Shown one piece after another: positions 52,340 through 60,270 of a DNA stretch of 64,000 nt. The position numbers were made by a program, and so were the translations under genes. Origin of the DNA: an uncultured Gemmatimonadota bacterium (lineage in GTDB: Bacteria > JAAXHH01); contig OX638340.1 in the NCBI GenBank assembly GCA_951812955.1, forward strand, positions 2,560,001 to 2,624,000, read 5' to 3'. Each line of letters starts with the position of its first letter. Within the stretch, counting starts at the first letter, position 1. The notes beneath the pieces are model-generated. The model was not told where the DNA came from. It worked only from the letters and a program-made list of their open reading frames with translations, and ran no database searches.

Positions 52340-53050
52340 TCAGCTCCTTCGATCCACTTCGATTCGTCCCTCGCCGGAGATGCTCCCGATCAGAACTTCG
52401 GTGGCCAGTCCGACGAAAAGACCGTTTTCCAGGATGCCGGGTATGTTGTTGAGCGTGCTTTCCATTCCGACGGGGTCGTCGATACCATCGAATCGGGCGT
52501 CTACGACCATGTTCCCCTGGTCCGTGATGACCGGTCCGTCCTTTTGAGCCGCCATGCGCAGCACGGGTTCCCCGCCCAGCGCTTCGACGGCCCGCAACAC
52601 GGGTCGTACGGCCATGGGAAGGACTTCCAGCGGCACGGGGCACTTCGATCCCAGCCGGTCGACCAGTTTCGATTCGTCCACGATGACGATGAACCGATCG
52701 GCCATGCCGTCCACGATCTTCTCGCGAAGATGGGCGGCCCCGCGGCCCTTTATCAGGTTCATATCGGGATCTACCTCGTCCGCGCCGTCCACGGCGATAT
52801 CGACCCGGTCCACATCGTCCGGCGTGAACGTGGGAATGGCGTTTTTTCGGGCCTGCACCGACGCGTCGAAGGAGGTGGGAATGCCCTGGATTCGAAGGTC
52901 CTCGTCCCGCACGCGCCGTCCCAGTTCCTCGATCATGAACACCGCCGTCGAGCCCGTGCCCAGTCCGACCACGTCCCCGTGCCGGACCATCCGGGCGGCC
53001 TCGACGCCAACGGTTTGCTTCATCTTACGGGTCAGTTCTTCGGATGGCAT
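52340..53050 (-). CDS. rpiA: ribose-5-phosphate isomerase A (start at internal MPSEELTRK)
   Basis: [30 protein letters not shown] catalytic blocks. Confidence 0.85.
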
Positions 53051-53256: not shown

Positions 53257-53796
53257 TCAGTCGGAACTGCGTCGGAAGGCCATCTGGTTACCGCTGGGGA
53301 AGAAGATCGTGAGAAGGTCTTCTTCGATGGTAATGGTGCAGGGCTCGGAAGGCGCGTCCTCGGCGTCCTTCGGTCTCACCTTCATCGACAGGTCGCTGGC
53401 CTCGAAACCTTCGACCGCATGGCCGCCGGAGAGGTTGTACAGGTGCCGGAAGGTCAGTTTGTCGCCGTCCAGGGTGTAGGTTCCCCCTTCTCCCGAACCC
53501 CGCCGGGGTCCTTCGTCGGTGAAGATGAAGAAGAGGACCGACCAGTCCTTTTTGGTGAACGTGATCAGGCCGGTCAATTCGTGGACCGGTCCGGACTTGA
53601 GCCGGTACGTTTCCGGTTGCCAGGAGCCGCGGATATCAAGCGGTCCGGCCGCGGATTGTGCAGGCGTGTTCGCGGTAGCGTTCGTTTCGGCCGCGGATTG
53701 TGCAGGTGTGTTTGCGGCGGCGGTCGTTACGGCGGCGCCCAGTACCAGGAACGCGGCCAGGGAAATAAGTAGACTCCAGCGCATGGTTGTCCTCAC
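53257..53796 (-). CDS. small secreted protein of unknown function with duplicated ANTPAQSAA motif
   Basis: Signal peptide MRWSLLISLAAFLVLGAAVTTAAA; 42-nt tandem duplication at 53647-53730; no recognisable catalytic motif. Confidence 0.4.
   Translation of the reverse strand: MRTTMRWSLLISLAAFLVLGAAVTTAAANTPAQSAAETNATANTPAQSAAGPLDIRGSWQPETYRLKSGPVHELTGLITFTKKDWSVLFFIFTDEGPRRGSGEGGTYTLDGDKLTFRHLYNLSGGHAVEGFEASDLSMKVRPKDAEDAPSEPCTITIEEDLLTIFFPSGNQMAFRRSSD
53647..53730. repeat. 42-nt tandem duplication inside the secreted protein gene
   Basis: ggccgcggattgtgcaggcgtgttcgcggtagcgttcgtttc / ggccgcggattgtgcaggtgtgtttgcggcggcggtcgttac. Confidence 0.85.
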
Positions 53797-54680
53797 GATT
53801 TCCCGGCCAGGTCTATTCCCGACCGATTCAGATAGTCTTCGATGTACGCGAGAAGGTCCGCCTGGGCGTTTCCCTGGTCCTGGAAACGCCTGAGGATCTC
53901 CTCGACCACAGGGCCGAGTTCCAGCGGGACGTCGAGCGTCCTGGCCAGATCGACGCCCAGGTGCATGTCTTTCACGCCCAGGTCAACGGCCGAATACAAC
54001 GGTTTGCCGTCCAGGAACCGTTTCAGGCACCGTTCCATCATCCGGCTCTGGCCCATGCTGGGCCGGATGGCGTCGATCAACGCATGTGGATCGATGCCCG
54101 CCCGCGCGCCGATGGCCATCCCTTCGCACGCGCCGATGAAATTGATGAACATCATGAAATTGTTGACCAGCTTGGTCGCGACGCCGCTGCCGCTGCCTCC
54201 CATGCGGACCACCGTCTTGCCTACGCCGCGCAAGAGGGGTTCGTACCGGTCGAATACGGCCTGCTCGCCTCCGACGAACACGGTCAGGGTGGCGTCCCTG
54301 GCGCCGAAGACGCCGCCACTGATGGGTGCGTCGAGCACGTCGATCCCCCTCGCAGCGCCTTCCCTGGCGATCCGCCGGATGTGTGCCGGATCGCCGGTGC
54401 TCGTGTCGATGTAGACCGCACCGTGGGCAAGTCCTTCGAACACGCCGTCGCCGCCCATGACCACCTCCTCCACGGCGGACGGCCCGGGCAGCGAAGTGAC
54501 GACCGCGTCGGCGTCCGCGGCCGTCTCCCGGGGAGATGCAGCCCACGAAGCTCCGGCGTCCAGCAGGTTGGCGGCCTTATCCTCGCACAGGTCATGGACC
54601 TGCAGGTCGTGCCCTGCCCGCAGCAGGCTCGCGGCCATGGGATTGCCCATGTTGCCCAAGCCGATGAATCCCACGTTCAT
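53793..54680 (-). CDS. NAD(P)-dependent beta-hydroxyacid dehydrogenase (3-hydroxyisobutyrate / 2-hydroxy-3-oxopropionate reductase family)
   Basis: Rossmann N-terminus MNVGFIGLGNMGNPMAASLL, 6-phosphogluconate-dehydrogenase-like NAD-binding and C-terminal helical domains; 295 aa. Confidence 0.8.
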   Translation of the reverse strand: MNVGFIGLGNMGNPMAASLLRAGHDLQVHDLCEDKAANLLDAGASWAASPRETAADADAVVTSLPGPSAVEEVVMGGDGVFEGLAHGAVYIDTSTGDPAHIRRIAREGAARGIDVLDAPISGGVFGARDATLTVFVGGEQAVFDRYEPLLRGVGKTVVRMGGSGSGVATKLVNNFMMFINFIGACEGMAIGARAGIDPHALIDAIRPSMGQSRMMERCLKRFLDGKPLYSAVDLGVKDMHLGVDLARTLDVPLELGPVVEEILRRFQDQGNAQADLLAYIEDYLNRSGIDLAGKS

Positions 54681-54688
54681 GGCCGGTC

Positions 54689-55111
54689 CTAACGTGTTTC
54701 GTCGATGGTGGGGAAATCACCCGGTATGGTGATTTCAATCACTTCAAAGTCGTCCGAGAATTCCATCAGTTCATGCTTGACGCCGGGCGCCTGGTACCAC
54801 GCGTCGCCCGCGTTCACCTCGATCTCGCCCACGTCCTCCAGATCGATGCGCGCCCAGCCTTTGAGCAGGTAGTTCATCTGGAATTCGAGTTCGTGGGAAT
54901 GATAGCCCATGGGACCGTCGCAGGACTGTGCCGCGCGGATGACGTGGGCCATGACCCTGCCTTCCGTCGCGGTCTTCATGCCCAGGTCGCGGTACACGAA
55001 ATAGGGCCGTAGTCCCTTGACCCATTCGGCGCCGTCGGACGGGGCCGCGAAGGATTTGGATGTTTTGTCAGCCATGGTGATGCTCCCTTCGATTGAGGAT
55101 TGCAGATTCAT
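54689..55111 (-). CDS. cupin domain protein
   Basis: 140 aa small beta-barrel with His-containing cupin motifs (YHSHELEF ... GVKHELMEF). Confidence 0.6.
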   Translation of the reverse strand: MNLQSSIEGSITMADKTSKSFAAPSDGAEWVKGLRPYFVYRDLGMKTATEGRVMAHVIRAAQSCDGPMGYHSHELEFQMNYLLKGWARIDLEDVGEIEVNAGDAWYQAPGVKHELMEFSDDFEVIEITIPGDFPTIDETR

Positions 55112-55182
55112 TCAGGTCCATTCGAGTTCATTTCGGGTTCATTGAGGTACATTTCTGGTTGTATGATTCGGAACAGGGATGT

Positions 55183-55971
55183 TCAAGGAATGCCCCTTCT
55201 CCCGCCGCCATCCATGTAGACCGCAGTACCGAAGACGTAAGAACAGGCTTCCGATACCAGGAAAGTCGCCACGTCGGCGATCTCTTCCGGTTCCGCGATG
55301 CGTCCGGCGGGAAGCCCTTCGCCGGCTTCGCGAAGCAGGGCCTCGACGTCGCGGCCCTGCCGGTCGGCCTCCGCCTGCTGCACGTCCCGGGCTCTCTGCG
55401 TGTTCGTCAGCCCGGGACAGATGGCGTTGACCAGGATGCCGTCTCCGGATACGGCGTCGGACAGGGCCCGGGTGCAGTTCAGGACGGCGATGTTGGCCAG
55501 GCTCAACGGGATGTTGACGCGGTCTGGACTCGTTCCCGCGCTGCCGGCGATATGGACGATGCGACCCCACCTGTTCTTCTGCATATACGGGATCACCAGT
55601 TGCGACATCCGCAGGTATCCGTGGGCCTTGAGCGCCATCCCGTCCTCGATCTGCTCAGTGGGCAGCGCCAGGATGTCTCCACCCCGGGCGGCCCCGGCGC
55701 TGTTGATGAGCATGTCGATACCGCCGAAGGTGTCAACAACCTCCTGGACCACCCTTAGGCAATCATCCGGCGAAGTCAGATCGGCCGCGACCGCAAAACC
55801 TTCGCCACCCGCCGCGTTTATGTCGCGGACCGCCTCGTCGAGCAAAGGACGGTTCCGGGCCGTGACGCATACGCGGGCGCCTTCCCGCGCCAGGGCCAGC
55901 GCGCAGCACCTCCCGATGCCCCGGCTTCCGCCGGTGACGATCGCCCTTTTTCCCTGGAGTTTGAGGTCCAT
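55183..55971 (-). CDS. SDR family oxidoreductase (start at MDLKLQGKRAIV)
   Basis: TGGSRGIG cofactor motif, catalytic YxxxK region; ~260 aa. Confidence 0.85.
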   Translation of the reverse strand: MDLKLQGKRAIVTGGSRGIGRCCALALAREGARVCVTARNRPLLDEAVRDINAAGGEGFAVAADLTSPDDCLRVVQEVVDTFGGIDMLINSAGAARGGDILALPTEQIEDGMALKAHGYLRMSQLVIPYMQKNRWGRIVHIAGSAGTSPDRVNIPLSLANIAVLNCTRALSDAVSGDGILVNAICPGLTNTQRARDVQQAEADRQGRDVEALLREAGEGLPAGRIAEPEEIADVATFLVSEACSYVFGTAVYMDGGGRRGIP

Positions 55972-56034
55972 GGTTTCAGCGTCCCGATTGATAGATACGC
56001 GTGGCCGCGGTCCGGTCACAGATATTCGGTTCGA

Positions 56035-57017
56035 TCAAAGTCCAAGCAGCCGGATCGCATTCCCCCCGAGTATGGCGGTCCGGTCGCTCTCCGACAGATC
56101 CATCGCGTTGATGCTCTCGATCATCTTCGGCATGCTCCCGATCTGGTGGGGATAGTCGCTCCCGGCGAGGATTCGGCCGGCGCCCGCGAAGCCCAGGGCG
56201 AAGTGCAGCGCGTCCACGTCGAAGTTCACCGTGTCGTAGTAGAACTGGCTCTTCAGGTAGTCGGTGGGATGGCGCTCCAGGTTGGCGCGGCACTGGGGAA
56301 AGGCCTCGTAGCACCGGTCGAAGCGTTCGGCGAGGTAAGGCACGGCGCCGCCCAGGTGACCCAGTACCCAGCGAATGTTCGGAAACCGCTCCACCACGCC
56401 GCTGAACAGCAGGCTCGCCGTGGCCAGGGTCGTATCCATCAGGAACCCGACCGCGGGCATGAGCATGTAGTCCTTCATGGCCTCCACGCCCAGGGGGAAG
56501 GTGGGATGGATGAAAACGACCATTTCGCGATCGTCCGCCACCTCGTACATGGGCCAGAACCTCGAATCGCTCAGGGCCACGCCGTTGGCGTTGCTGTACA
56601 CACAGGCCCCCTTCAGGCCCAGCGAGCCTACGGCCCGTTCGAGTTCGGCGGCGCAGGCTTTCGCATTGTTAAGCGGAAGGGTGGCCAGTGCGGGGAAACG
56701 GTCGGGATGTTCGCGCTGAATTTCGGCGAAGAGGTCGTTGACCTTGCCGCTCAGCTCGGCGGACCGTTCCGGCGTCTCGATGAGCGTGCCGGGCGCCGTG
56801 AAGGTGATGAGATGGGTGTCGACCCCGGCTTCCGCCATCACTTCCAGGCGCACGTCCATGAGCCGGTGACCAGGTACGAGGATGTTGTAGTCGCCGGGAG
56901 AATGCAGGACCGGATTGCCGTCCTCGTCGTCCGTCACCGTGTAAGCGCTCGGTCCATTCCGGATTTCCTCGACGTAGGCTGGTGGATAGACGTGGTTGTG
57001 AAAGTCTACGATGGGCA
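56035..57017 (-). CDS. amidohydrolase-2 family metal-dependent hydrolase/decarboxylase (ACMSD-like); start moved to MPIVDFHNHVY, so the Arg-rich N-terminal extension of the track ORF is excluded
   Basis: VDFHNHV metal-binding His pair at the N-terminus, further His/Asp ligands (HPTFP, GSDYPH); TIM-barrel length ~327 aa. Confidence 0.75.
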
Positions 57018-57047
57018 TGGGGTGTTCTCCGGTCCGCGCACTCAAGA

Positions 57048-59594
57048 TCAGGCGCCGTACAGCGCGTTGAATAGCAGCTTGAAGGTGCCGTGGGTCTGGT
57101 TGCGGAAGTTTACCTGGAACCCGTAGAGCACGATCCGTCCCTCGCCGTGACGCACGCTGATCATGGCGGGCTTGCCGGCGATGTGTTCCTCGCCGATCAG
57201 CCACCCGCTCTCGAGCACGTCTTCTTCGGGATAGGCGGCGATCACTTCGTACAGGTCGTTGTAGTGTGACGGGTTGATCGAATATACGGGGCTGGTGCGG
57301 TGCATGGCCAGGGCCTGGTCCGGCATGCCGAATCCGAGGCGGTGGGAATTGTCGACGCGGATCCGCAGCATGGAACCGGGACAGAAGAATGCGCTTTCCG
57401 GCAGGCCGGCGGATACGTCCGTGATATGCAGGCCGAACTTCTCGATGGGTAGCCGGCACGCGCGGCCGACGGCCACGAGCGTCCCGCCCTTTTCCACGAG
57501 GTCCCCAATGGCTTCGATTTCCGGATCGCCCAGGGCGCTCCGGTACGCTTCGGGCTGGGACATGGTCTTCAGGCGACTTTCGATCTCCTGTTCCGTGCCG
57601 GCCATCATGTCCATCGTGTCGTCGGGCAGGATGAGCACGTCACAGAGGTCGCGAAGGCCGCCCCGGATATCGGCGTCCCGCACGCTGCGGTAGGGGAACC
57701 CCGCTTGTTCCAGCGTCATGCGGGTCCATCCCTCGGGCATGTTGCCGCCCCAGTACCGCTGATACATGGCTATGCGCGGCTTCGAGAGCGGTTCTCCTTC
57801 CACCTGCTCCTCGAGTCGATAGCCGATTGCGCCGGTATCGCGTATGATCTGCTCGGCCCGTTCCAGGTCGCCTTCCCTGACGATAAAAGCGCCGGCCGGC
57901 AGTTCGCGGTCGCCTACGGAAAGGGGTCCCGCGGTCCGGCCGATTTCAGCGCCGGTCTCCAGCAGTTCGTTGACCGCGGAGAAAGCGGCGTTGTGCCGGG
58001 GATCGACGGCCATTCCGTGCTCCCCGTCGCCGGTCACGGAGCCATTCACCGGCACAGACTCGATCACCGGATCGAGGTTCAGCGAGCCGATGTCCAGTGC
58101 GGTGTGGGGCACCTCCGAGGGTTCCGCCACGACGCCCATCATCTCCGCCAGCGTGTCCGTCGTCGTATCGAAGATCCGCGTGGGCGAGCCATCGGCCTTT
58201 CTTGCCCAGGCGTCGTCGGGCCAGATGGTCCGTTCAAGCAGCGTCTTGACCACGCCCCGTTTGGGCTGCGCGTTGGAAATGAACCAGGTGCCCGCGGGAT
58301 AAACCCGGGTTCCCACTGTAGCGCGTGTCCGGGTCCGCTGCACGTCGATCCCCTGTCGCACCAGGGCGTTTACCAGGCCGGCCGCGACGGGGGCGTCGTG
58401 CTGATCGGGACGTATGAAGAAACCCGCCGAATCGTCCTCCTGGCCCCTGCCGGTCTGGTGCAGGGCCTTCTGCGCGGCGTTCCGCAGCACGGTATCCCGG
58501 CACCGCGCCGCGATGTCCATGAGACCGATGGCCGCGACGCGCTGCTGGTCCACCATGTCGCGCAACCGCCACCATCCCCCAGGCCACGGGTTTGGAAAGT
58601 TCGTCTGGGGCTTGTAGTGGGGCAGCGTGTGGAGCGTGTCGCCGTCCTCCCCCCTGAGCTGATGGGGATGGACGTAAAGGGGACTGGCCAGTTTCGCCTG
58701 GGCAGTTTCAGTCAGCAGACTCGCTATGTTGTGGTAGTTGCCGAGCCAGTGGAAGCCCATGTGGTACCATGCCGGGAACATGGCGCCGCTGATCACGCCC
58801 TGTTTGCCCGCTTCCTCCAGCTTGTAGACCATGTGCGCCCCGTACCAGTTGATCTCGCGCCAAATGAGCGGATCGGCGTGGGGATGAATGGGTTCGCAGT
58901 ATGGGCAGACGAACAGCCGGGGCTGGTATCCGCCCATTTCGTGGTGGTCCTGGAAGACGTGGGGGTGCCAGTCATTGAACATGATTTTGGCCATGTACCG
59001 GGACTCTACAAGGTTCAACATGAAGGCGTCCCGGTTGTTGTCGTGTCCGCAATACTTGTGATACAGCCACGGTAGTTCGCATCCCTCGTATTCCGTGCCA
59101 AGGTGCTCGTTGTACCAGTCCGACACCATGATCTGGCCATCGGGATTGAAGCACGGAACCATCAGGAATATGACGTTCTCCAGGATATTCTTCGTGGTCT
59201 CGTCGTCGCCCGTGACCAGGTCGTAGGCGAACTGGGGCGCCATCTGGGTCGCGGCGATCTCGCTGGCGTGAAGACCCATGGACTGGCAGACGATGACCTT
59301 TCCCCTGCCGACAAGACCGTCGATTTCGTCGTCCGAAAGGCCCCGGGGATCGCAGATTCGCCGGTTGGTCTCCCGCAATTCTTCCAGGTCGGCCAGGTTT
59401 CCGGCCGAAGTGATAATGGCCAGCAGGAAGGGGTTGTTCTCCGTCGTGGGACCCAGATTAACCACGCGGATGTTTTCGCTCTGCTGGTTCAGCAGGTAGA
59501 AGTACTCCGAAATGCGGTCCCAGCGGGCCATTTTGCAGTCGTCGCCGAGCCGGAAGCCGAAGAAAGATTCCGGACGCTCAACGCGGTCGGTCAT
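57048..59594 (-). CDS. M14 family zinc carboxypeptidase-like protein with long C-terminal extension, no signal peptide
   Basis: HxxE zinc motif GLHASEIAA, PCFNPDG, second His region HHEMGG; 848 aa. Confidence 0.6.
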   Translation of the reverse strand: MTDRVERPESFFGFRLGDDCKMARWDRISEYFYLLNQQSENIRVVNLGPTTENNPFLLAIITSAGNLADLEELRETNRRICDPRGLSDDEIDGLVGRGKVIVCQSMGLHASEIAATQMAPQFAYDLVTGDDETTKNILENVIFLMVPCFNPDGQIMVSDWYNEHLGTEYEGCELPWLYHKYCGHDNNRDAFMLNLVESRYMAKIMFNDWHPHVFQDHHEMGGYQPRLFVCPYCEPIHPHADPLIWREINWYGAHMVYKLEEAGKQGVISGAMFPAWYHMGFHWLGNYHNIASLLTETAQAKLASPLYVHPHQLRGEDGDTLHTLPHYKPQTNFPNPWPGGWWRLRDMVDQQRVAAIGLMDIAARCRDTVLRNAAQKALHQTGRGQEDDSAGFFIRPDQHDAPVAAGLVNALVRQGIDVQRTRTRATVGTRVYPAGTWFISNAQPKRGVVKTLLERTIWPDDAWARKADGSPTRIFDTTTDTLAEMMGVVAEPSEVPHTALDIGSLNLDPVIESVPVNGSVTGDGEHGMAVDPRHNAAFSAVNELLETGAEIGRTAGPLSVGDRELPAGAFIVREGDLERAEQIIRDTGAIGYRLEEQVEGEPLSKPRIAMYQRYWGGNMPEGWTRMTLEQAGFPYRSVRDADIRGGLRDLCDVLILPDDTMDMMAGTEQEIESRLKTMSQPEAYRSALGDPEIEAIGDLVEKGGTLVAVGRACRLPIEKFGLHITDVSAGLPESAFFCPGSMLRIRVDNSHRLGFGMPDQALAMHRTSPVYSINPSHYNDLYEVIAAYPEEDVLESGWLIGEEHIAGKPAMISVRHGEGRIVLYGFQVNFRNQTHGTFKLLFNALYGA

Positions 59595-59628: not shown

Positions 59629-60270
59629 TTACCTGGTTTTTCTCATCACGCTGGTAATCACGACCGGCGGTGTGAGACGCTGGTTTTCGCGGGGAGACTT
59701 CTGGATCTTCCGGATCACGTCCATGCCCCGGGTCACGCGGCCGAAAGCGGCGAATCCCTGTCCGTCCGGGTTGCGTTTGCCGCCGTAATCGAGCTCGGGC
59801 TGATCGCCTATGCAGAAGAAGAAACCCGAGGTCGCCGTGTCCGGTCCCATGCGGGCCATGGAAATGGCGCCGTCCACGTGCCTGATCTCGGTCGAGGTGG
59901 TCCGTTCCAGTGGAATCGGATCGAATCCGCTGTTTGGCGGATAACTGTCATCCCGGAAATCGGGGTTCACGGCGCCCTGTATCACCTCGATCTTCACGTC
60001 GTTGTTCGGCTGGTTGTCCATGGTCACCGTCCGGTGGAAGACTCCGCCGTTGTATTGCCCGGCGTCCACGTATCGCATGAAATTCGATACCGTAACCGGT
60101 GCCCGGACCGGGTCGAGCACGATTTCGATGACCCCCGCTTCCGTAGTCATTTCCAGGGTGATTTCTCTTTCCTGGGCCTGGCCCGGTCCGGCCGGCATGC
60201 CCAGGAGGCCGAAGAGCAGCAGGCCGGACAGGATGCGAATCATTTTCGTCGCCGGATTTCTCATGTGCAT
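59629..60270 (-). CDS. secreted cyclophilin-type peptidyl-prolyl cis-trans isomerase (start at internal Met; signal peptide MIRILSGLLLFGLLGMPAG)
   Basis: Cyclophilin blocks VSNFMRYVDAGQYNGGVFHRTV and FGRVTRGMDVIRKIQ. Confidence 0.8.
   Translation of the reverse strand: MHMRNPATKMIRILSGLLLFGLLGMPAGPGQAQEREITLEMTTEAGVIEIVLDPVRAPVTVSNFMRYVDAGQYNGGVFHRTVTMDNQPNNDVKIEVIQGAVNPDFRDDSYPPNSGFDPIPLERTTSTEIRHVDGAISMARMGPDTATSGFFFCIGDQPELDYGGKRNPDGQGFAAFGRVTRGMDVIRKIQKSPRENQRLTPPVVITSVMRKTR

Follow-up and report, generated by a model that had tools for sequence, protein, structure and literature searches.

The locus analysed here lies in a 64,000-nucleotide stretch of contig OX638340.1 (positions 2,560,001 to 2,624,000; assembly GCA_951812955.1) from an uncultured Gemmatimonadota bacterium; this whole stretch, with a GC content of about 62%, is referred to below as the window. 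On its minus strand, from position 60270 to 53257, seven tightly spaced genes follow one another in the order cyclophilin, M14 peptidase, amidohydrolase-2 (AH2), short-chain dehydrogenase/reductase (SDR), cupin, 3-hydroxyisobutyrate dehydrogenase (HIBADH)-like beta-hydroxyacid dehydrogenase, and a small secreted protein. A preliminary description of this DNA had singled out the last six of them (53257-59594) as a putative catabolic operon. All six open reading frames (ORFs) are present and closely packed, and Pfam and PDB matches agree with the domain families that had been proposed for their products. Our analysis upholds only a part of the proposed operon: the SDR, the cupin, and the HIBADH-like dehydrogenase constitute a conserved module and are the real unit, as only these three genes travel together, whereas M14, AH2, and the small protein are not linked to them elsewhere.

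The evidence for this "trio" comes from the genomic neighborhoods of the cupin gene, orthologs of which (56-73% identical) are common. A metagenome scan with a 20-sequence cupin profile added 65 loci, which is also the total of cupin loci outside the clade to which the window belongs. In 21 of the 29 loci with at least 2 kb of sequence on both sides of the cupin, an ortholog of the HIBADH-like dehydrogenase (47-61% identical) and/or of the SDR (65-74%) is directly adjacent, always on the same strand. After de-replication at 90% identity the cupin loci represent 32 lineages with GC contents of 36-70%; a trio partner stands beside the cupin in 19 lineages and both partners do so in six, the HIBADH-like ortholog being the immediate neighbor in 15. 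Seven gene orders were seen (CH, HC, CS, SC, CHS, SCH, and SHC, with C for cupin, H for HIBADH-like dehydrogenase, and S for SDR), e.g. SDR (66%)-HIBADH (59%)-cupin (70%) in locus L089, cupin (65%)-SDR (68%) in L090, cupin-HIBADH (58%) in L158, and SDR (70%)-cupin in L160 and L161. Adjacency that is retained across divergent genomes while the order is shuffled is the signature of a functional module. None of these 65 extra-clade loci contains the M14 gene, an AH2 ortholog, or the gene for the small protein.

Beyond the trio members, no neighbor family recurs in more than about six cupin loci. The genes that accompany the trio elsewhere are mostly of carbohydrate or oxidoreductase types (heparinase II/III-like, Gfo/Idh/MocA, 3-keto-disaccharide hydrolase, AP_endonuc_2 family protein, HpcH/HpaI aldolase, aldo-keto reductases, GMC oxidoreductase, and PhyH), which hints at a carbohydrate-derived acid as the substrate of the trio. 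Two unrelated genomes carry, directly beside the cupin, tandem pairs of paralogous proteins of ~505-524 amino acids (L090, 3780-6931; L158, 3625-6703), which are weakly interrelated (23-29% identity) and show no significant Pfam or PDB sequence match. We also found an MlrC-type gene (DUF1485 and MlrC_C), a gene of the acetoacetate-decarboxylase family, and an Amidohydro_2 paralog (29% identical to AH2) close to the trio in L089 (117-2506) and L090 (1181-3765), two loci that differ in their arrangement.

The SDR (262 amino acids, 55183-55971, with an ORF that extends upstream to a GTG at 56019; adh_short, E 1e-43) has the cofactor-binding motif TGGSRGIG at residues 13-20, and the Y-x3-K motif is absent from the whole protein. 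In an alignment with FabG, the positions of the catalytic Ser, Tyr, and Lys are occupied by G143, L156, and N160. Across 37 distinct SDR orthologs, L156 varies, but no variation is seen at G143 and N160, nor at K115 and Y119 on the preceding helix. Such triad-less orthologs were found in L089, L090, L099-L152, and L160. The nearest PDB entries are the uncharacterized 2z1n and, next to it, 6JH7 (E 2.4e-39, aligned over residues 1-256), which is AerF, an NADPH-dependent C=C reductase (PMC13256417). Both structures likewise lack Tyr and Lys at the classical SDR positions; 2z1n does not share K115 and Y119, and the window SDR and 6JH7 have in common the K...GY..R, WGRIV, and N...N-x-T positions. 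Judged by these sequence features, the SDR is a member of an atypical AerF-like subfamily. To our knowledge, the only studied relatives of this small triad-less group are C=C reductases of natural-product pathways. In the SDRs the second beta-strand is followed by TAR[D/N/T]R, and in the HIBADH-like proteins the last residue of this strand is an Asp; according to the fingerprint rule, motifs of this kind are read as NADPH-type in an SDR and NAD-type in a HIBADH-like protein, which suggests NADPH as the cofactor of the former and NAD as that of the latter.

The cupin (128 amino acids, 54689-55075, with an ORF that extends to 55111) is a monocupin with a Cupin_2 score of 26.7 bits, just below the 27.2 cut-off. 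The residues invariant in 20 orthologs, G57, H59-x-H61-x4-Q66, G73, and H101, include the metal motif. Its sole strong solved relative is PDB 2o8q (E 1e-27 by sequence and 4e-32 by profile, with residues 14-124 aligned), a structural-genomics cupin listed as "Hypothetical protein", for which we found no published function, the literature matches being phasing-method papers only. A PDB search with the 20-ortholog profile, extended to E 10, retrieved no entry labeled as AerE or BacB. The profile matched KdgF from Yersinia with E 0.024 and that from Halomonas with E 0.17, and oxalate decarboxylases and sugar isomerases scored better. H101 is followed by SDDFEVIE, and in an alignment made by eye the invariant E114 stands where the Arg of KdgF would fall (D108-x-F110-x3-E114). 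The cupin is a probable isomerase. Its plasmid-borne homologs (39-46% identical) are found near aromatic-catabolic or efflux genes, without an SDR or HIBADH-like neighbor.

The HIBADH-like protein (295 amino acids, 53793-54680) possesses both domains of its family (NAD_binding_2, PF03446, E 7e-47, and NAD_binding_11, PF14833, E 6e-26) and the segment GSGVATKLVNN, in which the Lys is the predicted catalytic residue, as in the beta-hydroxyacid dehydrogenase family. It scores below the NCBIfam equivalog cut-offs for tartronate semialdehyde reductase (TSR; 231 vs 341), HIBADH (215 vs 292), L-threonate dehydrogenase (178 vs 350), and sulfolactaldehyde reductase (174 vs 348), and among PDB entries it matches 2-hydroxymethylglutarate dehydrogenase (5e-50) and TSR (1e-48) best. 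The view of the preliminary description that the gene set corresponds to no known named pathway is borne out: no gene has a characterized ortholog and no NCBIfam equivalog cut-off is reached. We considered and dropped a DMSP-lyase-type cupin, a combination of 3-hydroxyanthranilate dioxygenase with ACMSD, and threonate, tartronate, or sulfolactaldehyde routes, as no match supported them.

The spacers within the trio behave differently from each other. Exactly 8 nt separate the cupin stop codon from the HIBADH start in 21 of 21 clade loci, and from this fixed distance the HIBADH-like start is probably translationally coupled to the cupin. The SDR-cupin spacer (55076-55182 in the window), which contains a tandem repeat detected with TRF and the ribosome-binding site of the cupin, ranges from 44 to 174 nt across the 21 clade loci and carries different short tandem repeats, only the AAGGAG-type ribosome-binding site being conserved. 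Among the spacers compared (L002-L039), the repeat of the window has a 10-11 nt unit (55107-55143, GAAATGAACC-like), and that of L018 is GGGCACGCCCTGAAGCC-like.

The M14-type metallopeptidase (848 amino acids, 57048-59594) has no signal peptide, in agreement with the cytosolic location proposed earlier, and no start codon is possible further upstream. The Pfam profile PF00246 (E 6.6e-13; 49.3 bits vs the cut-off of 21.6) matches only residues 33-168, corresponding to positions 6-121 of 286. The motifs HxxE (H109, E112), NPDG, NNR (N186-R188), DHH (216-218), and TE (295-296) are invariant in 16 homologs, and, if mapped by motif onto carboxypeptidase A, they would provide the zinc ligands, the substrate-binding N-R, and the catalytic Glu; the protein is probably an active cytosolic metallocarboxypeptidase. 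The AF2 model calculated from 16 sequences is poor (pLDDT 63, with residues 156-342 below 35, so that the catalytic half is unmodeled). Its C-terminal part matches ThuA-like and class-I glutamine-amidotransferase (GATase) folds with E 4e-7, so that the protein begins with the M14 catalytic domain, continues with middle domains, and ends in a ThuA/GATase1-like domain. The latter (residues ~600-848; 57048-57800) contains an invariant F-x-C-P-G-S (C738) that resembles a nucleophile elbow, and the domain might be catalytic rather than structural. A search of PDB sequences found no relative of the M14 protein, and looking up its exact sequence retrieved no contig. The same full-length architecture occurs in large (~850 amino acids) M14 family metallopeptidases of Poribacteria (52-59% identical), and, with 32-34% identity, of cultured bacteria, the family members coming from Acidobacteriota, Streptomyces, and Bacteroidota; the homologs from cultured organisms differ in having ~33 extra N-terminal residues and in their neighbors, which are TonB-type receptor genes and an S9 peptidase or amidase. 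Among the retrieved large M14 family proteins there is no characterized member and no solved sequence relative.

A genome scan anchored on M14 yielded 518 confirmed loci, of which 80 were kept and searched with all window proteins by tblastn. The full string was found in only 22 of them, all with an M14 protein at least 71% identical to that of the window; 20 show the series PPIase (the cyclophilin)-M14-AH2-(SDR)-cupin-HIBADH, and the M14-AH2-SDR-cupin-HIBADH order is retained down to 71% M14 identity (L014, L098). These clade loci come from sponge and marine metagenome-assembled genomes of ~3.7-3.9 Mb, labeled Gemmatimonadetes, Latescibacterota, or just "bacterium"; a literature search on Latescibacteria, sponges, and carboxypeptidases found nothing specific. 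Most of the 22 loci also retain the small protein, RpiA, and CcmF on one side and the divergent TonB-like and nucleoside-symporter genes on the other. Since these unrelated housekeeping flanks are conserved to an equal depth, the conservation of the string is synteny by descent and is uninformative with respect to functional coupling. In three clade genomes (L005, L006, and L038) 0.95-1.6 kb of unrelated DNA is located exactly between M14 and AH2, and in another (L029) the SDR is missing. The insertions (L005, 12551-13501; L006, 12551-14149; L038, same position) are apparently foreign, and that in L006 contains an Ion_trans_2 channel gene and an ORF of 119 amino acids without a Pfam match.

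The remaining 58 loci, in which M14 is 51-63% identical, belong to Poribacteria, Bathyarchaeia, Zixibacteria, Opitutales, Krumholzibacteria, and other Gemmatimonadota, and in none of them did tblastn find AH2, the cupin, HIBADH, or the small protein. The preliminary description had named neighborhood conservation, with M14 and AH2 as anchors, as one way to check the proposed operon. The six-gene unit does not survive this check: M14 is never beside the others outside one clade, and AH2 occurs alone or in other places. The neighbors of the distant M14 genes are lineage-specific, e.g. a gene for gamma-glutamyltranspeptidase in 17 loci of Poribacteria and, in another 13 loci, one for a Gfo/Idh/MocA oxidoreductase. 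The transpeptidase gene (PF01019, E 2e-124) divergently adjoins the M14 homolog, ~0.5 kb upstream of it, in the 17 loci (within L042-L077), and this hints at a role of the M14 family in the turnover of gamma-glutamyl or glutathione-type peptides. Every clade locus has the cyclophilin upstream of M14, and so does L025 (M14 58% identical), where sulfatases and an enolase-superfamily gene come next.

The ORF listed for AH2 reaches position 57459 and so runs into M14; the gene really begins with the ATG at 57018, with GGAG upstream, which gives a protein of 327 amino acids (56035-57018). It matches PF04909 over its full length (positions 1-289 of 289, E 4e-40) and contains the motifs DFHNH (close to the N-terminus), FIHP, GHLGG, and GSDYPH, which are the predicted metal ligands. 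The best PDB matches are LigW (3e-34), ACMSD (4e-31), gamma-resorcylate decarboxylase, and IDCase, with E-values from 1e-34 to 1e-26 and scores of 122-111 bits, i.e. at the level of paralogs, and no NCBIfam match was found with E up to 1e-3. AH2 is therefore a probable metal-dependent non-oxidative decarboxylase or hydratase of the ACMSD/LigW class; it shares with the four enzymes the full-length PF04909 domain and the N-terminal H-x-H metal motif, but it is not orthologous to any of them and belongs to an uncharacterized family of its own. Members of this family (~326 amino acids, 67-75% identity) are found across phyla, in Anaerolineae (Chloroflexota), Caldithrix (Calditrichota), Nitrospinota, KSB1, Rhodothermales, and others, and the ortholog is usually a lone gene. 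No ortholog was found on plasmids, where the best match is 38% identical.

We examined four independent AH2 contexts outside the clade: in Anaerolineae it is located beside an Amidohydro_3 gene, in Caldithrix it shares an overlap with the gene of an amino-acid permease, in the third case it is isolated on a 92-kb contig, and the fourth is L162. None of the four contains an SDR ortholog, the cupin, a HIBADH-like gene, or M14 near AH2. L162, from a more distant relative, has the arrangement AH2 (74%), Amidohydro_3, response regulator, homolog of the small protein (53-57%), RpiA (62%), and CcmF (70%), with neither M14 nor the trio. This layout is most simply read as showing AH2 and the small gene to be long-standing residents of the region, with the trio placed between the two in the window clade only. 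Amidohydro_3 is thus beside AH2 in two lineages, the two Amidohydro_3 proteins being only 27% identical. The homolog of the small protein in L162 (12809-13205) is split over two frames and is either a pseudogene or the result of an assembly error.

The last gene of the string (53257-53784) encodes a protein of 175 amino acids if counted from its ATG, or 179 from a GTG at 53796. As proposed earlier for this product, it has the features of a secreted, repeat-bearing protein: a hydrophobic, signal-like N-terminal segment is followed by a linker of 2.2 copies of a 14-residue repeat (at the DNA level, a 42 nt x 2.2 tandem repeat at 53646-53737, detected with TRF) and by a barrel at residues ~45-175. 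The AF2 model has a pLDDT of 87.7 (~97 in the barrel) and nine strands, and Foldseek matched it to the lipocalin-like structures 5byp and 4qrl (E ~3e-4, TMt 0.60-0.64) and to VtrC; the Pfam match to Lipocalin_4 (E 0.012) is below the cut-off. On the basis of this confident model, the protein is a secreted lipocalin-like beta-barrel. Its family is a rare one: clustering at 50% gives just 127 representatives among 1.8 billion proteins.

At the opposite end, the close-packed string begins with a gene that was not included in the earlier six-gene set: a periplasmic cyclophilin-type peptidyl-prolyl isomerase (PPIase; 213 amino acids with a signal peptide, 59629-60270; PF00160, E 2.9e-31), 34 nt upstream of M14. 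The spacers from the cyclophilin to the small protein measure 34, 29, 63, 107, 8, and 8 nt, the last becoming -4 nt with the GTG start. The downstream boundary is the housekeeping gene for ribose-5-phosphate isomerase A (RpiA, 52340-53050, minus strand; PF06026, E 9e-65), and upstream of the string the TonB-like gene and the nucleoside symporter gene are transcribed divergently. The co-directional run is longer than six genes, with RpiA, CcmF, RNase Y, and QueG continuing on the minus strand, so that a common direction and tight spacing belong to the background of the region. The 206-nt gap between the small protein and RpiA contains a promoter-like site (53123-53094) with a 9/12 match, which is not above chance; likewise, a scan for consensus promoters and terminators returned 4 and 9 sites vs 2.7 and 8.5 expected, i.e. 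the chance level. Scans of the whole 64-kb window for Rfam families (at gathering thresholds) and tRNAs detected no RNA family, no riboswitch, and no tRNA gene.

The best explanation of the whole, which we hold with moderate confidence, is that the string is a co-directional mosaic in which the trio is the functional unit, with an isomerase/ene-reductase/dehydrogenase mechanism, and that there is no dedicated six-step pathway. M14, AH2, and the lipocalin-like protein are independent genes that are neighbors only in the sponge/marine clade. The cupin would act on an unsaturated carboxylic acid of the keto or hydroxy type and isomerize a double bond or a keto-enol system in it; the triad-less SDR would then use NADPH to reduce the activated C=C bond, just as the cupin isomerases AerE and BacB are followed by AerF and BacG; and the beta-hydroxyacid dehydrogenase, using NAD(H), would interconvert a hydroxyl and a carbonyl. 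The logic put forward in the preliminary description, in which a substituted acid is released and then decarboxylated, reduced, or oxidized, is unsupported as a whole, but its reducing and oxidizing part is reasonable for the trio.

Several observations weigh against the mosaic explanation. The spacers of the clade loci are short (21-149 nt, barring the three insertions) and there is no convincing terminator on the strand, so that a single transcript may run from the cyclophilin to the lipocalin gene, and co-transcription could mean a functional link specific to this lineage. Thirteen of the 32 cupin lineages have no trio partner (five of them for lack of flanking sequence), which makes the trio a facultative module. 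In L089, L090, and L158 the trio has peptidase-like genes of the MlrC (M81) type and AH2 paralogs (~29% identical) at a distance of a few kb; MlrC-type genes were seen in L090 and in one related group that comprises L089 and two loci of the same layout. The sample of AH2 contexts outside the clade is small, as it consists of the four described above. Finally, no sequence relationship of the cupin to AerE or BacB was found with E up to 10, so the analogy to the AerE/AerF pair is carried by the SDR and by the adjacency of the genes.

Some of these observations favor the view that the six genes together, with or without the cyclophilin as a seventh, are a single catabolic operon specific to this lineage, in which M14 releases a modified acid from a peptide or pseudo-peptide, AH2 decarboxylates or hydrolyzes it, the trio completes the conversion, and extracellular substrate is bound by the lipocalin-like protein. 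The genes are indeed tightly spaced and co-directional, without a clear terminator, their order from M14 to HIBADH is kept to 71% M14 identity (L014, L098), the unsaturated aldehydes or acids produced by enzymes of the ACMSD class could suit an AerF-type ene-reductase, and the MlrC-type genes and AH2 paralogs in L089, L090, and L158 are a faint echo of the idea of a peptidase combined with a hydrolase. However, the equally deep conservation of the housekeeping flanks marks the shared order as plain synteny, the 58 distant M14 loci and the 65 cupin loci never combine both gene sets, AH2 orthologs stand alone elsewhere, and in L162 AH2 and the lipocalin gene are present but M14 and the trio are absent. 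Moreover, three genomes tolerate foreign DNA between M14 and AH2, and the AH2 paralogs near the trio (~3 in ~35 long loci) are close in number to our rough estimate of ~1 expected by chance. We regard such an operon as improbable. A bolder proposal, to which we likewise attach a low probability, is that the trio is a widespread, unrecognized marine catabolic module with a triad-less AerF-type SDR acting as ene-reductase on some abundant unsaturated acid of the keto or hydroxy type, and that in the sponge clade it was recruited behind an ACMSD-class decarboxylase, possibly also behind M14, giving rise to a new route for a host-derived conjugate.

Two other readings concern the trio itself. It could be a uronate module of the KdgF/KduD/DEH-reductase type, in which the cupin linearizes 4,5-unsaturated uronates that are set free from glycosaminoglycans or alginate, and the two dehydrogenases produce 2-keto-3-deoxygluconate by reduction of the keto-uronate. 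The cupin has three His and one Gln in its metal motif, as reported for KdgF, and in an alginate locus of Bacteroides KdgF is accompanied by two oxidoreductase-like genes (PMC11381880); the weak matches of the PDB profile search include KdgF (E 0.02), genes of the heparinase II/III-like, 3-keto-disaccharide hydrolase, and HpcH/HpaI aldolase types are found near the trio in L158, L160, and L161, and sulfatase genes occur in the related loci L025 and L162. Yet the similarity to KdgF is at a generic cupin level, with oxalate decarboxylase and sugar isomerases scoring higher, and the Asp-x-Phe-x3-Arg signature of KdgF is unmatched, the invariant E114 taking the place of its Arg in the alignment by eye. 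A carbonyl reductase of the KduD type would be expected to have the triad that the window SDR lacks. The trio has no recurrent neighbor of the kinase or KDPG aldolase type, as against 98% of isomerase-reductase clusters with kdgK and kdgA (PMC12838403), and we consider a uronate module quite unlikely. Alternatively, the trio could be biosynthetic and follow a Choi- or tetrahydrotyrosine-like route (with AerD/E/F or BacA/B/G logic) towards a non-proteinogenic amino-acid precursor of a natural product of a sponge symbiont. AerF is the closest functionally characterized solved relative of the SDR (PMC13256417), the adjacency of cupin and SDR mirrors AerE/AerF and BacB/BacG (PMC10143770, PMC9147277), and sponges are a known source of aeruginosin-family compounds (PMC10143770). 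Against such a route, there is no prephenate decarboxylase, nonribosomal peptide synthetase (NRPS), aminotransferase, or ligase among the characterized genes adjacent to the trio, the cupin has no AerE or BacB match, and the trio is scattered over deep-ocean metagenome contigs with 36-70% GC in catabolic-looking surroundings; this makes a biosynthetic role very improbable.

Under the mosaic explanation, which we prefer, the interest of the locus lies in the trio: it recurs in no fewer than 32 distinct lineages, mostly of uncultured marine bacteria, and none of its members is characterized. Knowledge of its substrate would give a function to the recurrent "hypothetical oxidoreductase/cupin" annotations in ocean and sponge metagenomes, and would also show whether AerF-type chemistry serves catabolism. 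The locus further illustrates that operon logic should not be read from synteny inside one clade.

With regard to known systems, the logic of a decarboxylase followed by a cupin isomerase, a reductase, and a dehydrogenase has been established for Bac and Aer (PMC9147277, PMC10143770). In the biosynthesis of bacilysin, BacB (cupin isomerase) and BacG (reductase) act after the decarboxylase BacA (PMC9147277), and when aeruginosin's Choi moiety is made, AerE is the cupin isomerase and AerF the reductase (PMC13256417, PMC10143770). The trio resembles AerE/AerF and BacB/BacG in that a small cupin is encoded beside an SDR, and in the kinship of this SDR with AerF. Unlike in the Aer and Bac systems, there is no prephenate decarboxylase, transaminase, or NRPS near the trio of the window, the third partner is a beta-hydroxyacid dehydrogenase rather than BacC or BacF, and the surroundings look catabolic. 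The second group of comparable systems, the clusters of KdgF with KduI/KduD and DEH-reductase, likewise combine a cupin that has a metal site of three His and one Gln with NAD(P)-dependent reductases; KdgF is further characterized by the catalytic Asp-x-Phe-x3-Arg after the third His (PMC11381880). The loci of the trio are in part located beside polysaccharide-lyase-like genes, as in uronate isomerase-reductase clusters (PMC11381880, PMC12838403). They differ from the KdgF systems in that the KdgF profile match has an E-value of only 0.02 and the Asp/Arg signature is unmatched, in that the SDR is devoid of the carbonyl-reductase triad, and in that kdgK and kdgA are not adjacent. Set beside these systems, the trio is an uncharacterized example of an isomerase-reductase catabolic module, i.e. 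of a known kind of system, in which the AerF-like, triad-less SDR is the noteworthy component.

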